A stretch of 5,250 nt of DNA from a virus. Lineage: Duplodnaviria; Heunggongvirae; Uroviricota; Caudoviricetes. The stretch lies in IMG/VR virus record IMGVR_UViG_2609459846_000012. One strand, 5' to 3'. How positions within the stretch are numbered: position 1 is the first letter of the stretch; the number at the start of each line of letters is the position of its first letter. Under the pieces are notes generated by a model. That model had not been told where the DNA came from and searched no databases. It was given only the letters and a program-made list of their open reading frames with translations. Below, one piece after another: positions 195-5,250 of the stretch. A program made the position numbers and the translations under genes.

Positions 195-430
195 CCCATC
201 CACTAACACAGAGATCTAACCATGAATACTGGATATACGCCCGAACAGGGGCGGGGCTTCGTTCGTCCTGGTGAAACTAAAAAGCCATGTTATCGGGTAT
301 TTTCAGGCATAAAAAAAGCGGCCCCGATAAGGAACCGCCTTTCTGAACAATTAACCTGCTGCGAAAAAAATGGATCAGTGCAGGGGAATTATATCAACCG
401 TGTGGTGAAGCGCCACTATTGCCGGATAAC

Positions 431-463
431 AAGCAAAACAAAGGCGACCGCAAAAGGGTCGCC
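431..463 (-). terminator. Rho-independent terminator for the leftward RHH operon
   Basis: On the minus strand: GGCGACC-CTTTTGC-GGTCGCC (7-bp perfect GC-rich stem, 7-nt loop) followed directly by TTTGTTTTGCTT; lies 67 nt downstream of the minus-strand ORF ending at 530. Confidence 0.55.
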
Positions 464-529
464 AGTGGGAACAAGGGAAAACAAAAGCATCGCCAACAAT
501 GCCACATTTGCGGCTGGTGGGCAATGCAA

Positions 530-718
530 TCAGTCTGGTTCAGTTCGTTGCCATACCTGCAATGAGCGCTTTTCCCTGTACTCTTTAAGGAATTGCTCAA
601 GGGCAAAAGCACATGGCGCGAATCTTTCTGATTCATGCTCTATCTTTCTGCGCCGTCTTTTCCGTGTCGGTGATAATGTTTTGGTCAATTCTTTATCGGT
701 CATTGTGTTGTCCTGCAT
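530..718 (-). CDS. hypothetical small basic protein (57-62 aa), second gene of leftward operon
   Basis: ORF-track ORF MQDNTMTDKELTKTLSPTRKRRRRKIEHESERFAPCAFALEQFLKEYREKRSLQVWQRTEPD. The internal ATG (MTDKEL, position 703) has a better Shine-Dalgarno (AGGA, 7-nt spacer) than the first ATG. Followed by the intrinsic terminator. No recognisable family. Confidence 0.4.
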   Translation of the reverse strand: MQDNTMTDKELTKTLSPTRKRRRRKIEHESERFAPCAFALEQFLKEYREKRSLQVWQRTEPD

Positions 719-760
719 AGCAATGCGCCGTAATACCTTACACCACGGCGCTGGTGATGG

Positions 761-940
761 TTATTCCTGCTCTTTGGCCTTGCGACGCTGGCGGTATTCA
801 ACTTCTCGCTTTAATGCTGCTGTTACAAACTGCCCTGTACTTTCACCAGGCATTTTTACCGCCTCAACATTGTTCATAACTTCATGCGGAACCCTTGCCG
901 CAACTGTTTGTGATTTTGCGTTTACTGCTTTTGTTGCCAT
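761..940 (-). CDS. ribbon-helix-helix (CopG/Arc/MetJ-like) DNA-binding protein, 59 aa
   Basis: Hand-translated minus-strand ORF (below the ORF-track size cutoff): MATKAVNAKSQTVAARVPHEVMNNVEAVKMPGESTGQFVTAALKREVEYRQRRKAKEQE*. Predicted beta-strand (TVAARVPHEV), helix A, G-x-S/T turn (PGESTG), helix B fits the RHH fold pattern. SD-like AAGGGG about 7 nt upstream of the ATG. Divergent from the replication operon. Confidence 0.6.
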   Translation of the reverse strand: MATKAVNAKSQTVAARVPHEVMNNVEAVKMPGESTGQFVTAALKREVEYRQRRKAKEQE

Positions 941-989
941 GTTGTGTACCCCTTACAAAAAACAAATGCAGTATGCAGGAAAAAAAATA

Positions 990-1043
990 AGTGTTCAACA
1001 CTTGACGTGTTTAACACCAGAGCTTAAATTGGTGTTCAACACC
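990..1043. promoter_or_regulatory. divergent promoter/operator region with three palindromic operator-like sites
   Basis: AGTGTTCAACACT (990-1002), GTGTTTAACAC (1007-1017), GGTGTTCAACACC (1031-1043). Rightward sigma70-like promoter: -35 TTGACG (1002-1007), 17-bp spacer, -10 TAAATT (1025-1030). Leftward promoter candidate on the minus strand: -35 TTGAAC (within palindrome 1), 17-bp spacer, -10 CATACT (complement of 970-975). Confidence 0.5.
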
Positions 1044-1139
1044 TTACTGATGCAAGGTGCAGAAACGACGAAACCCGGCAGTGCGCTAACACTAACCGGG
1101 CTTCTAACCACCAACGATAGAAAGCGTATCGAGGTAGCT

Positions 1140-1346
1140 ATGAGAAATTATACCAGACACCCGCAAGGGCGGGACTCGTACAACCTGAATAAATACATCT
1201 GGCGTTTTATCGCCCTGAGCACGGCACAACCGCGCGTGATTACCATTGAGGCCACCAGCGAACAGGAAGCGCGTCAGCAATCTCCTGATGGCTGCGTGAT
1301 GGTATTCGCTGCCCGTATTCGTCAGGGGGTACGCCATGTGCAATAA
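1140..1346 (+). CDS. small phage protein, possibly Icd-like (host cell division inhibitor-like) family, 68 aa
   Basis: In-frame ATG inside the spurious 374-aa ORF with SD GAGG upstream: MRNYTRHPQGRDSYNLNKYIWRFIALSTAQPRVITIEATSEQEARQQSPDGCVMVFAARIRQGVRHVQ. The W.F.A....ATSE.EAR....V.VFAAR pattern matches my recollection of Icd-like small proteins annotated beside P4-family primases; the family call is from memory and unverified. Confidence 0.45.
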   Translation: MRNYTRHPQGRDSYNLNKYIWRFIALSTAQPRVITIEATSEQEARQQSPDGCVMVFAARIRQGVRHVQ

Positions 1347-2033: not shown

Positions 2034-2333
2034 ATGAAACTTAAATATTCTGGCTTAACTGCCAGTGGCAACACTCACCCTAAATTTACGCGCGGCGATA
2101 TTTACCGCGACCAGTACGGCGGCACGGTAATGATTAAGGACGTGGAAGAACGGCGCGTAACCTACCGCCGTGAAGGTTACGAATATGATTGCGTGATGCC
2201 TGTTTATCAGTTCCGGCGTGATTTTTCTCTGGTACAGACCGCGCCGCATAACGTGTCCACCAGCAACGCCAGGGCACGGGCAAACATCCAGAAGCTGAAA
2301 ACCATGATTAACGGATTCAGGGGTAAAAAATGA
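2034..2333 (+). CDS. hypothetical protein, 99 aa, immediately upstream of and coupled to the replication gene
   Basis: ORF-track ORF; SD GGAGA upstream; stop overlaps the alpha-like start (ATGA). Occupies the position that epsilon/orf151 hold relative to alpha in P4 as I recall it, but no sequence support for homology. Confidence 0.55.
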   Translation: MKLKYSGLTASGNTHPKFTRGDIYRDQYGGTVMIKDVEERRVTYRREGYEYDCVMPVYQFRRDFSLVQTAPHNVSTSNARARANIQKLKTMINGFRGKK

Positions 2334-4144
2334 AACTGGCACCGAACGTAAAACAGCAGTCACGCGGCATAAAACACAAAGAAACAGAAGTCATTATTTT
2401 TGCGGGTAGTGATGCCTGGTCACACGCAAAACAATGGCAGGAACATGACGCGCGTATGGCCGGAGATAATGAGCCTCCTGTGTGGCTTGGGGAGCAGCAG
2501 TTATCCGAACTGGATAAGCTGCAAATTGTGCCGGAAGGCAGAAAATCCGTGCGCATATTCAGGGCCGGATATCTTGCGCCAGTAATGATAAAGGCGATTG
2601 GTCAGAAGCTGGCGGCGGCAGGCGTACAGGATGCAAATTTTTATCCTGAGGGTATGCACGGCCAGGAGGTGCAGAACTGGCGCGAATATCTGGCCCGTGA
2701 GCGCCAGAATCTTTCTGATGGTCTGGTGATTCAGCTTCCTGTTAAGAAAAAAACAGAAGACAGCGCCGCACCACTGGCGCTTAACCAGATGGGAGCAAGC
2801 CAGCGCGGCGAAGTTCTCCTGGCACATTATGGCGGTGAACTGGCGATTCATGCCGACTCTGACACTGTTCACCATTACAACGGCGTTGTATGGGAGCCGA
2901 TTCAGGATAAAGAGTTACAGCGTGCTATGGCGCAGATTTTCATTGATGCGGAGATCAGCTATTCGCAGAACGCCATTAAATCGGCGGTCGATACCATGAA
3001 GTTAAGTTTGCCTGTAATGGGGAATACAGCCCGTAACCTGATTGGATTCAGTAACGGGGTATTTGATACCAGAACAGGTAATTTTCGGGAGCATAACAAA
3101 AACGACTGGTTGTTAATTGCCAGTGAATTACCTTTCAGCCCACCAGCAGAGGGGGAAACGCTGGCAACACATGCGCCGAATTTCTGGAAGTGGTTACGCT
3201 GCTCGGTGGCAGAGAATGACCGCAAGACGGATCGCGTGCTGGCTGCATTATTCATGGTGCTGGCGAACCGGTACGACTGGCAGTTATTCATTGAGGTAAC
3301 AGGTCCAGGGGGAAGTGGTAAAAGCGTGATGGCGGAGATTTGCACCATGCTGGCGGGTAAGGCCAACACAGTATCGGCAAGCATGAAGGCGCTGGAAGAT
3401 GCAAGGGAACGCGCGTTAGTGGTTGGCTTTTCGCTGATTATCATGCCGGATATGACCCGCTACGCTGGTGATGGCGCAGGAATTAAGGCTATTACAGGCG
3501 GTGACAAGGTGGCAATCGACCCGAAGCATAAAGCCCCCTACTCAACACGCATTCAGGCGGTCGTGCTGGCGGTGAACAATAACGCCATGTCATTCAGTGA
3601 CCGCAGCGGGGGGATCTCACGTCGTCGGGTGATATTCAATTTTTCGGAGGTTGTACCGGAGAACGAGCGCGACCCCATGCTGGCAGAAAAAATAGAAGGA
3701 GAGCTGGCGGTTGTGATTCGCCATCTGCTTACTCGTTTTTCTGACCAGGACGAAGCTAAACGCCTGCTGTATGAGCAGCAGAAATCAGAAGAAGCTCTGG
3801 TGATAAAACGCGAGGGCGATTCGCTGGTGGACTTCTGTGGCTATCTCATGTCGTCGGTAATGTGTGATGGTCTGTTAGTGGGTAATGCCGAAATTATTCC
3901 GTTCAGTCCGCGCAGGTATCTTTATCACGCCTATCTGGCATATATGAGGGCACACGGATTCGGTAAACCTGTAACACTGACGCGCTTCGGTAAAGATATG
4001 CCGGGGGCAATGGCGGAATATGGCAGGGAGTATATAAAACGGAAAACGAAGCACGGTTTGCGTTCAAATGTGACACTGACAGAGGATTCAGAAGACTGGA
4101 TGCCATCATGTGCATCGGTCACAAATGACGACAGCAAAAATTAA
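2330..4144 (+). CDS. P4-alpha-like replication initiator: D5_N-like region plus SF3 (P-loop) helicase, 604 aa
   Basis: Walker A VTGPGGSGKS (nt 3302-3325); Walker B-like hydrophobic run ending in D (LIIMPD); motif C-like VVLAVNNN; upstream GFSNGVFDTRTGNFREH resembles the D5_N / P4-family primase C-terminal region. Cognate iterons lie immediately downstream. The N-terminal ~200 aa are unassigned. Confidence 0.85.
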   Translation: MKLAPNVKQQSRGIKHKETEVIIFAGSDAWSHAKQWQEHDARMAGDNEPPVWLGEQQLSELDKLQIVPEGRKSVRIFRAGYLAPVMIKAIGQKLAAAGVQDANFYPEGMHGQEVQNWREYLARERQNLSDGLVIQLPVKKKTEDSAAPLALNQMGASQRGEVLLAHYGGELAIHADSDTVHHYNGVVWEPIQDKELQRAMAQIFIDAEISYSQNAIKSAVDTMKLSLPVMGNTARNLIGFSNGVFDTRTGNFREHNKNDWLLIASELPFSPPAEGETLATHAPNFWKWLRCSVAENDRKTDRVLAALFMVLANRYDWQLFIEVTGPGGSGKSVMAEICTMLAGKANTVSASMKALEDARERALVVGFSLIIMPDMTRYAGDGAGIKAITGGDKVAIDPKHKAPYSTRIQAVVLAVNNNAMSFSDRSGGISRRRVIFNFSEVVPENERDPMLAEKIEGELAVVIRHLLTRFSDQDEAKRLLYEQQKSEEALVIKREGDSLVDFCGYLMSSVMCDGLLVGNAEIIPFSPRRYLYHAYLAYMRAHGFGKPVTLTRFGKDMPGAMAEYGREYIKRKTKHGLRSNVTLTEDSEDWMPSCASVTNDDSKN

Positions 4145-4158
4145 ACTTATGGAATAAC

Positions 4159-4386
4159 TGTTCACCACTGTTCACCCTGTTATAAATATCTTTTATATCA
4201 GTACATTATAGGGTGAACAGTTATTTGTGAACTGTTCACCAAACTATTCACTGTTCACCTTTTTGATTATTTATTGAGCTTTAAGGGTGAACAGTGGTGA
4301 ACAGTTGGTGAATAGTTTTTGTGAAACTGTTCACCCCTTAACATTATGAATAAAAAGGGAAAATATCAAAAGGTGAACAGGTGAAG
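4159..4386. repeat. origin of replication: iteron array of TGTTCACC octamers in both orientations, interspersed with AT-rich tracts
   Basis: Forward TGTTCACC at 4159, 4169, 4233, 4252, 4328; reverse GGTGAACA at 4212, 4286, 4296, 4372; degenerate copies at 4177, 4245, 4307, 4380. Adjacent copies are spaced 10 bp apart (4159/4169; 4286/4296). AT-rich stretches at 4177-4210, 4260-4284, 4336-4370, 4389-4418. The octamer is identical to the type I iteron bound by P4 alpha in ori and crr, as I recall it. Confidence 0.8.
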
Positions 4387-4431
4387 GGTTAAAATGCAAA
4401 AATTTTATTTTATTGCTGTGAGGTAAAGCCT

Positions 4432-4677
4432 GTGACAACGAAGCACGCAAAAAAACCACAATCTCACGCCCTTGATTTGACAGAACACTGGCTGAGGGTG
4501 GCGATAAAAATCATCGACCGCAACGCGGGAGAAGGGTACGCAAAAGCACATCCCGAACTGGTAAGCGCATTCATGACCACGGCAGCGGCAAACTTTGCCA
4601 CGCTGACAGAACGGGAGATTGCCGAAGCGGAACAGGTGACAACCATCAACGTTAAAACCGGAGAGCAGACAGCATGA
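4432..4677 (+). CDS. hypothetical protein, 81 aa (GTG start)
   Basis: ORF-track ORF; GAGG 8 nt upstream of GTG; stop overlaps the start of the SSB-like gene (ATGA). Confidence 0.55.
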   Translation: MTTKHAKKPQSHALDLTEHWLRVAIKIIDRNAGEGYAKAHPELVSAFMTTAAANFATLTEREIAEAEQVTTINVKTGEQTA

Positions 4678-5099
4678 CAGCACAGATAGCGGCTTACGGG
4701 CGGCTGGTGGCTGACCCGCAGTTAAAGACCACCAGCAAAGGGACACAAATGGCGATGGCGAGTATGGCGGTTCCCCTGCCGTGCAGCCAGGCAGATGACG
4801 GAACGGCGACGATGTGGTTATCTGTCCTGGCGTTTGGCAGACAGGCCGACGCACTGGCAAAACACCACAAAGGCGAACTGGTGAGCGTGGCGGGTAACAT
4901 GCAGGTGAGCCAGTGGACAGGCCAGAACGGGGAAACGCGGCAGGGCTGGCAGGTTATTGCAGACAGCGTAATCAGTGCGCGAACGGCGCGACCGGGCGGC
5001 AAAAAAGGTCAACAGGGCCAGGCCACTGACGCACTGAACAGGGCAAAACAACAGACAAGCCAGCACGATGACCCGTACGGGGATAACATACCGTTTTAA
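4674..5099 (+). CDS. compact single-stranded DNA-binding (SSB-family, OB-fold) protein with conserved acidic C-terminal tip, 141 aa
   Basis: By-eye alignment to E. coli SSB: IAAYGRLVADPQL vs VILVGNLGQDPEV; MWLSVLAFGRQADALA vs EWHRVVLFGKLAEVAS (W54 and F60 equivalents kept); SQWTGQNGETRQGWQVIAD vs RKWTDQSGQDRYTTEVVVN (W88 equivalent kept); C-terminus DDPYGDNIPF vs SSB tip DFDDDIPF. The Gly/Gln-rich linker is much shorter than in host SSB. Confidence 0.7.
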   Translation: MTAQIAAYGRLVADPQLKTTSKGTQMAMASMAVPLPCSQADDGTATMWLSVLAFGRQADALAKHHKGELVSVAGNMQVSQWTGQNGETRQGWQVIADSVISARTARPGGKKGQQGQATDALNRAKQQTSQHDDPYGDNIPF

Positions 5100-5135
5100 T
5101 TCACAACAGCGAACAGAGTAATTACGGGGGAAGGC

Positions 5136-5250
5136 ATGACAACGCTGACCATTAACCGGAAGCCGAAAGGCATTTACGGCACGCCGCAGAAAACGACGCA
5201 GGCGGCGCAAGAGCAGGATAAAACCACATCGGCGCATAAAGTGATACCCG
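5136..5250 (+). CDS. hypothetical protein, 5' portion only (runs off window)
   Basis: ATG at 5136 preceded by GGGGGAAGG; open to window end (MTTLTINRKPKGIYGTPQKTTQAAQEQDKTTSAHKVIP...). Confidence 0.45.
   Translation, partial: MTTLTINRKPKGIYGTPQKTTQAAQEQDKTTSAHKVIP

Follow-up and report, generated by a model that had tools for sequence, protein, structure and literature searches.

An SSB gene with a conserved acidic tip directly after the iteron origin of a putative capsid-forming PICI in Escherichia coli

The leading regions of conjugative plasmids carry genes such as the ssb of F, a copy of a bacterial-type SSB (a protein that binds single-stranded DNA) with a host-like C-terminal tip. In phage SPP1, the SSB G36P also has a host-like tail; it works with the phage initiator and helicase and the host elongation machinery, and supports phage rolling-circle replication together with seven host elongation proteins (PMC3561973). 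G36P is 48% identical to the SSB of its host, and its gene lies in a recombination and replication operon with a recombinase and an exonuclease. Another such protein is Bas52_0087, the trigger of DRT10, for which an interface with host SSB partners such as ExoI has been proposed. Closest to the present case are the SSBs of Gram-negative PICIs catalogued by Mageeney et al. 2023, where the gene co-localised with Primase and DUF5906 genes and with mapped origins, and was placed in the 'Replication' category (PMC10111431). That study only categorised the SSB family, with no analysis of the tip, survey of replicase partners or assignment of function. The papers on capsid-forming PICIs (cf-PICIs) that we consulted do not discuss ssb, and our literature search found no functional study of, or experiment on, any PICI SSB.

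The gene described here is the same thing as the PICI SSBs of that catalogue. It lies in a 5,250-nucleotide stretch of viral DNA (IMG/VR record IMGVR_UViG_2609459846_000012; hereafter the window), on the + strand at 4674-5099, and encodes 141 amino acids from an ATG start, exactly as a sequence-only reading of the window had it. That reading also implied novelty, which did not hold up: the exact protein is WP_000126639.1, already named 'single-stranded DNA-binding protein' in RefSeq, and SSB has already been placed in the PICI replication zone (PMC10111431). All close homologues that carry a name in their source are likewise named SSB. The satellite SSB is therefore known by annotation and classification, and is an ordinary, common gene. 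Like E. coli SSB (P0AGE0; PDB 1eqq), it combines an OB-fold core with a disordered linker and an acidic, IPF-ended tip, and it belongs to the same Pfam and TIGRFAM family. It resembles G36P in being a mobile-element SSB with a host-like tail, and Bas52_0087 in combining an SSB-like fold with a tip similar to E. coli FDDDIPF, although Bas52_0087 has two OB folds and comes from a virulent phage. Unlike E. coli SSB, which belongs to the core genome, the satellite SSB is encoded by a mobile island.

With 100% identity, the window matches the chromosome of E. coli E203449, where allE and allC flank an island of about 14 kb. Its left part holds an integrase, an HTH (AlpA-like) regulator, YlcI/YnfO (antisense), an Icd-like gene, three small ORFs and a DUF4222 protein. 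The middle comprises a 604-aa primase-family protein, iterons, an 81-aa ORF, ssb, a ProQ/FinO-family gene and one small ORF, and the right part a major capsid protein, HK97 protease, portal, head-tail connector, HNH, TerS and TerL. These seven capsid and packaging genes are annotated at 21179-27175 of locus L001, with an equal set in three further loci (L017, L018 and L030). The left end is of the PICI type, with integrase, AlpA-like regulator and replicase in one orientation (RefSeq, L001). RefSeq annotates no tail, holin or lysin genes in the ~14-kb island, and no annealing protein, exonuclease or recombinase genes. The reported median size of cf-PICIs is 14 kb (PMC10085698), and the island has the genes and the size by which cf-PICIs are defined (PMC10085698; bioRxiv 10.1101/2022.09.08.507074). 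Elements of this class are induced by a helper phage and transferred in small capsids of their own fitted with helper tails. By gene content and size, the element is best classified as a cf-PICI.

The sequence-only reading had compared the element with P4, but a P4-like nature was not borne out. P4 does not encode its own capsid, and this island has its own capsid, protease, portal, connector, HNH and both terminase genes. A P4-like satellite was also rejected on other grounds: sid, psu, delta and epsilon are not annotated in the island, and an Rfam scan of the window found no C4- or isrK-type RNA, nor any structured RNA at gathering scores. Against TIGR01613, the P4-family primase C-terminal model, the replicase scored 96, below the cutoff of 108.7, and Pfam found no match in it to the Toprim domain, a hallmark of the P4 alpha primase.

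The family identity of the satellite SSB is clear. Both SSB profiles exceed their curated cutoffs: PF00436 at 59.4 bits (cutoff 26, E 4e-16, residues 5-99; Pfam) and TIGR00621 at 62.7 bits (cutoff 53.95; NCBIfam). Searching all PDB chains with phmmer returned almost only SSBs among the matches listed, the best of which, at 1e-10 to 1e-9, come from Thermus and Thermotoga; the E. coli protein is at 4e-5, and against the satellite core, the Staphylococcus SSB also outscores that of E. coli. BLASTP puts the identity between the core and E. coli SSB at only 26%, compared with the 48% that G36P shares with its host's SSB. Because the OB core is so distant from E. coli SSB and closer to Thermus, Thermotoga and Staphylococcus SSBs, the satellite SSB is an old, separate SSB lineage with a generic bacterial SSB tip, and no recent copy of the host gene. 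The proposal that it retains the host tip suggests derivation from the host, which a core with this low identity does not support.

The core itself (residues 1-103; 4674..4982, + strand) is delimited by PF00436, the predicted structure, Foldseek, the stacking aromatics and selection. An AF2 monomer run on a 26-sequence family alignment gave strands at residues 2-11, 16-19, 25-36 and 44-54, a helix at 55-62 and strands at 69-82 and 88-101, with a pLDDT of 82-92 across residues 1-100 and a disordered tail. This is the canonical OB topology of four strands, a helix and two long strands, as a prediction and not a solved structure. The best Foldseek matches in the PDB are the SSB cores of S. aureus, B. 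subtilis and Coxiella (E 5e-10, probability 1.0, TM 0.76 normalised to the target), which places the predicted fold closest to solved SSBs.

We also compared the ssDNA-stacking aromatics with those of E. coli SSB, using the sequence identical to PDB 1eqq_A as reference. In the pairwise alignment, E. coli W54, F60 and W88 correspond to W48, F54 and W81, and the three equivalents named in the sequence-only reading are indeed present. They are also conserved within the family, W81 being invariant and W48 and F54 nearly so among 26 members. The fourth, W40, is replaced by Gln39, such that three of the four stacking aromatics are kept. In addition, E. coli His55, the ssb-1 position, is Leu49. Since W40 is lost and His55 is a leucine, the ssDNA-binding mode of the satellite SSB and the stability of its presumed tetramer may differ from those of E. 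coli SSB.

Could the protein be some other small OB-fold protein, or an SSB associated with recombination rather than replication? PriB is an OB-fold dimer without a disordered acidic tail, and in Gram-positive phages ssb adjoins recombinase genes. The shortness of the satellite protein (141 aa) and the missing W40 are in keeping with this idea. So is its phage distribution: in 50,697 phage records searched with tblastn, no counterpart exceeded approximately 30% identity, and the matches at or below this level came mostly from Gram-positive phages. However, the profile and fold matches listed are almost all SSBs, and the island lacks an annealing protein or exonuclease gene that a recombination-associated SSB would accompany. 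PriB itself was rejected, as no PriB family or structure was among the matches and the protein has a linker of approximately 28 residues and an acidic IPF tip. The profiles, the fold and the missing recombinase already largely refute both versions of this explanation, and we consider it extremely improbable.

The same phage search led us to reject a typical coliphage SSB, the closest of the 50,697 records being about 30% identical or less. An SSB from the leading region of a conjugative plasmid was likewise rejected: tblastn against 72,556 plasmids matched only 47 records, of which 41 are non-mobilizable and 2 conjugative. The two best plasmid matches are chromosomal-looking records with a similar island.

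Beyond the core, the protein has low pLDDT throughout residues 104-141. The disordered linker (residues 104-131; 4983..5066, + strand) falls below a pLDDT of 50 at residues 104-120 and contains a low-confidence helix at 117-128 (AF2). It also varies in length within the family, with 8- to 13-residue indels in the 26-sequence alignment, and includes a conserved GQQGQATDALNRAKQQ segment. While the E. coli linker has about 55 residues and is rich in Gly, Gln and Pro, that of the satellite SSB has about 28 and is rich in Lys, Arg and Gln. Describing it as minimal, as the sequence-only reading did, was therefore an overstatement, since it is approximately half as long as its E. coli counterpart.

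The tip follows at residues 132-141 (5067..5099 including the stop codon, + strand) and has the C-terminal sequence that had been noticed, DDPYGDNIPF, whereas E. coli SSB ends in MDFDDDIPF. The last three residues are those of the E. coli tip DFDDDIPF. A variant of D-x-[YFW]-x-D-x-IPF forms the C-terminal end in most of the 120 closest database clusters, and in nearly all of their full-length members it is a form of D-D-P-[YFW]-x-D-x-I-P-F. D137, P140 and F141 are invariant and I139 nearly so in 26 family members. In other genera the linker can no longer be aligned, yet the proteins still end in acidic residues and a terminal Phe: DQRPPFDDE[TA]PF in Enterobacter and Buttiauxella, DDQIPF and DDLPPF in Leclercia, YDDDF in Klebsiella, QHEDDF in an Enterobacter hormaechei cf-PICI and FNDEPEF in Rosenbergiella. 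A coincidental resemblance to the SSB tip had been raised as a concern, and this conservation across the family and in other genera speaks against it.

In bacterial SSBs, the C-terminal Pro-Phe pair and the terminal carboxylate make the critical contacts with chi and other partners, while losing one of the three preceding acidic residues only modestly weakens partner binding (PMC3561973). The satellite tip keeps I-P-F, the Asp at -5 and an aromatic at -7, with Gly and Asn replacing two Asp, and has three acidic residues in its last ten compared with four in E. coli. Judging from these substitutions, its affinity for partners could be weaker or selective.

The OB domain has a dN/dS of 0.10-0.22 against eight relatives from other genera (Nei-Gojobori; dS was not estimable for three others), indicative of purifying selection. 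Together with the persistence of an acidic, Phe-ended tip, this suggests that selection keeps the gene as a working SSB whose tail binds partners.

The genes around ssb point to replication. Upstream, at 2330..4144 (+ strand), the window encodes a predicted replication initiator/helicase of 604 aa with D5_N, DUF5906 and Pox_D5 domains (Pfam). It matches phrog_864, 'DNA primase', with an E value of 5e-193, and RefSeq names it 'DNA primase family protein'. It lacks the Zn-ribbon and Toprim domains found in relatives from other genera, and its N-terminal 167 aa have no sequence match in the PDB. Next comes an AT-rich iteron origin (4145..4395), upstream of ssb, where GGTGAACAG occurs 10 times between 4158 and 4380 and in both orientations, and the claim that the gene sits just after the origin is thereby confirmed. 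Counting matches with up to one mismatch, the window as a whole has 14 occurrences of GGTGAACAG where chance would give 0.95, a count that was not reached in any of 200 shuffles. This arrangement differs from that of the G36P gene, as the satellite ssb directly follows an iteron origin in a satellite without a recombinase.

Between the origin and ssb lies the 81-aa ORF (4432..4677, + strand; phrog_1231), which has a GTG start with GAGG 8 nt upstream. It has no match in Pfam, NCBIfam or PADLOC, and AF2 predicts a low-confidence helical hairpin (pLDDT 63). Its homologues are nearly all hypothetical proteins of Escherichia and Shigella, apart from one Citrobacter-labelled record; beyond Escherichia and its closest relatives, the ORF was not detected. 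The stop codon of this ORF overlaps the ssb start by 4 nt (ATGA). Co-transcription of the two, as suggested in the sequence-only reading, is consistent with this overlap and with their shared travel in other genomes, but gains nothing from promoters or terminators: on the + strand, our scan of 4100-5250 found nothing above shuffle expectation. Because of this negative scan, the case for co-transcription consists of the overlap and the conserved pairing.

Downstream, the first part of a ProQ/FinO-family gene (176 aa; 5136..5250, + strand; RefSeq) runs off the window. Its matches to NCBIfam FinO (E 2e-18) and ProQ (E 5e-16) are both below cutoff, but a gene of this family recurs after ssb in five loci (L003, L010, L011, L016 and L021). 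PADLOC matched neither the SSB nor the 81-aa ORF, the ProQ-like protein or the next ORF, and we accordingly rejected a component of a known defence system.

To see how widespread the gene is, we searched complete E. coli genomes for the DNA of the 81-aa ORF and ssb, and found it in 1854 of 5426, with up to six copies per genome. Almost every one of the E. coli matches listed carries the RefSeq name SSB. In one O157:H7 genome the gene pair occurs twice, one copy being in a classical PICI at roxA-phoQ. This PICI starts with int, HTH, Icd, DUF4222, a RepA-family helicase, an 83-aa ORF and ssb, and continues with PerC, lambda-like capsid and decoration genes and TerS. A chromosomal-looking 32.5-kb 'plasmid' record has the gene in another cf-PICI with a DUF5906 replicase.

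Outside E. coli, when a single genome was scanned for each species, 27 ssb loci came to light, in Escherichia albertii, Enterobacter, Klebsiella, Pluralibacter, Leclercia, Buttiauxella, Rosenbergiella, Pantoea, Rahnella and Raoultella. Two of these are again cf-PICIs. In nearly all 27, an ORF of 600-950 aa is directly upstream of ssb, and in most of ten sampled loci this ORF has either D5_N/DUF5906/Pox_D5 or Zn-ribbon/Toprim/DUF927 domains. Element-specific iterons separate it from ssb in all eight intergenic regions examined (GGTAGACAG, AAGTGAGG, GGTAGGGAT, ACGGGTTA, TGAGACAACA and GGGACAAG). The recurrence of ssb after the origin, which the sequence-only reading had suggested surveying, therefore extends to related elements across the Enterobacterales. 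Since the order of replicase, iterons, (small ORF) and ssb holds beside D5-type, Toprim-DUF927 and RepA-type replicases, ssb belongs stably to the satellite replication module, irrespective of which replicase type it accompanies.

This distribution also bears on whether the SSB is simply redundant cargo, functional but dispensable, that hitch-hikes with the replication module while host SSB does the work. The host SSB is present and might suffice for satellite replication, and SPP1 replication runs on either the phage or the host SSB (PMC3561973). The studies consulted on E. coli PICIs and cf-PICIs also name int, alpA and rep as conserved left-end genes and leave ssb unmentioned. However, cargo of this kind is difficult to reconcile with the low dN/dS of the OB domain, with an N-terminus and tip conserved in at least 10 genera, or with the retention of ssb beside three unrelated replicase types. 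Within E. coli, moreover, 1946 genomes match the window somewhere, compared with 1854 (about 95%) for the segment with the 81-aa ORF and ssb. We therefore think it very unlikely that the gene is mere cargo.

Taken together, we consider it likely that this is the bacterial-type SSB of a cf-PICI replication module, which coats satellite ssDNA and recruits the host replisome via its tip. A helper phage would induce the island, and a rightward operon would be transcribed through the replicase, iteron origin, 81-aa ORF, ssb and ProQ-like gene. The island helicase would then open the iteron origin, and the satellite SSB would coat the single strands exposed there. Its tip could bring in Pol III (through chi), DnaG and PriA from the host, as the island encodes none of these. 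Amplification of the island might in this way be possible even while helper and satellite replication titrate the host SSB pool.

It has also been suggested, in the sequence-only reading, that such an SSB could compete with host SSB for its partners. In that case it would mainly be a decoy: with its host-like tip displayed on satellite ssDNA or in solution, it would divert ExoI, RecQ, RecJ, PriA and chi from the helper phage or the host chromosome. Alternatively, it would mask satellite ssDNA, so that neither nucleases nor defence systems sensing foreign SSB-ssDNA could act on it. Two observations would fit: a conserved tip that is nevertheless unlike the host's DFDDDIPF, and a lineage that shares only 26% identity with host SSB and is distinct from it. 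Competition for host partners has a precedent by analogy in G36P, which inhibits host replication in vitro even with saturating host SSB (PMC3561973). Retron-Eco8, DARNA and DRT10 are described as sensing phage SSBs or SSB-like proteins with a host-type tip; SSB identity thus matters in phage-host conflicts, and by analogy a defence-related side of the satellite SSB is conceivable. On the other hand, PMC10085698 reports the effect of the prototype cf-PICI on helper fitness as negligible, PADLOC has no match, and the fixed place beside origin and replicase points to replication and away from conflict. We regard a mainly competitive or masking role as unlikely, although it is compatible with a role in replication and hence not an exclusive alternative.

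A more specific possibility, which we consider quite improbable, is that the variant tip and GQQGQATDALNRAKQQ might make this old PICI and cf-PICI SSB lineage a selective adaptor, for loading of the replisome or for hiding ssDNA. If so, the host replisome would be loaded preferentially onto satellite DNA, or satellite ssDNA would be hidden from SSB-sensing immunity and nucleases. Either way, the satellite would gain an edge in replication over its helper and do the helper no harm.

As found, the satellite SSB matters little in itself: it is named in RefSeq, common, and already assigned in the literature to the replication zone of Gram-negative PICIs. What we add is modest, namely the conservation of the tip despite turnover of the linker, the association with three replicase types and matching iterons, and the absence of this lineage from catalogued coliphages. 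Being compact and portable, the module of replicase, iterons and ssb could also be used as a minimal replicon in which to study the recruitment of the host replisome by PICIs.

The C-terminal tip of the SSB varies by lineage, since the relatives at loci L005, L008, L017, L018 and L021 lack the canonical Ile-Pro and finish with ...DDDF or ...EDDF, while those at two Rosenbergiella loci (L020 and L022) end in ...EPEF. The host SSB tips are expected to be canonical in the genera carrying these variant satellite tips. Upstream of the tip, the linker contains a conserved segment, GQQGQATDAL[NR]RA[KQ]QQ (window 5010-5060; SSB residues ~113-129), which is kept in SSBs from Escherichia, Enterobacter, Leclercia, Klebsiella, Pluralibacter and Buttiauxella. 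In the AF2 model, a stretch of it (residues 117-128) forms a helix of low confidence. Such conservation and predicted partial helicity are unusual for an SSB linker, and the segment could represent a second interaction motif. Other E. coli elements carry an alternative linker, SRRKTTGTQGNQPPAGG, in its place.

Among the loci with related SSBs, one contig labelled Chryseobacterium (L012) encodes an enterobacterial-type SSB (64% identity), a sign that the record may be contaminated or mislabelled. A relative at 44-49% was also found in a Fulvimarina MAG (L026). Two PLSDB "plasmid" records consist of chromosomal-looking sequence; CP088587.1 (L030) is 32.5 kb long and carries pntB and mdtJI together with a cf-PICI, and NZ_CP141089.1 is 4.9 Mb in size.

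The ssb gene (window 4674-5099, +) is preceded by an 81-aa ORF (phrog_1231; window 4432-4677, +), whose stop overlaps the ssb start in an ATGA, and the two genes are translationally coupled through this overlap. Aligned homologues share 68-88% identity with the 81-aa protein, which is conserved in Escherichia and close relatives; no such ORF was detected next to ssb in genera beyond these. The protein had no family match in Pfam, NCBIfam or PADLOC, AF2 returned only a low-confidence helical hairpin, and it might be a partner of SSB or of the replicase. Directly after ssb lies a ProQ/FinO-family RNA-chaperone-like gene (window 5136-5250, +, continuing to position 20666 of L001, the E. coli E203449 chromosomal locus). 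This gene also follows ssb in L003, L010, L011, L016 and L021, and a PerC-family regulator takes its place in other elements.

To the left of the replication genes, in the variable zone of Gram-negative PICIs, lies a 374-aa ORF (window 222-1346, +) that RefSeq annotates as two pieces, a pseudogene fragment and an Icd-like gene; a YlcI/YnfO-family gene lies inside it in antisense (window 761-940, -). The replicase (window 2330-4144, +), annotated as a "DNA primase family protein", combines D5_N, DUF5906 and Pox_D5 domains. Relatives from other genera, such as that of L017 (76% identical), additionally have an N-terminal Zn-ribbon and Toprim, whereas both domains are absent from the window replicase, and its N-terminal ~160 aa matched no Pfam family or PDB chain. 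The E. coli version may lack primase activity and rely on host DnaG.

Iterons occupy the intergenic region between replicase and ssb in the window element (4145-4395), L002 (10728-10939), L003 (8863-8924), L004 (8651-8911), L006 (8341-8657), L013 (8262-8500), L017 (8723-8966), L018 (2904-3155) and L030 (8445-8682). The position is the same in all nine, but the iteron sequence is element-specific. Elements with similar replicases have iterons in common, as with GGTAGACAG in L017, L018 and L030, which suggests that initiator and iterons co-evolve as one cassette.
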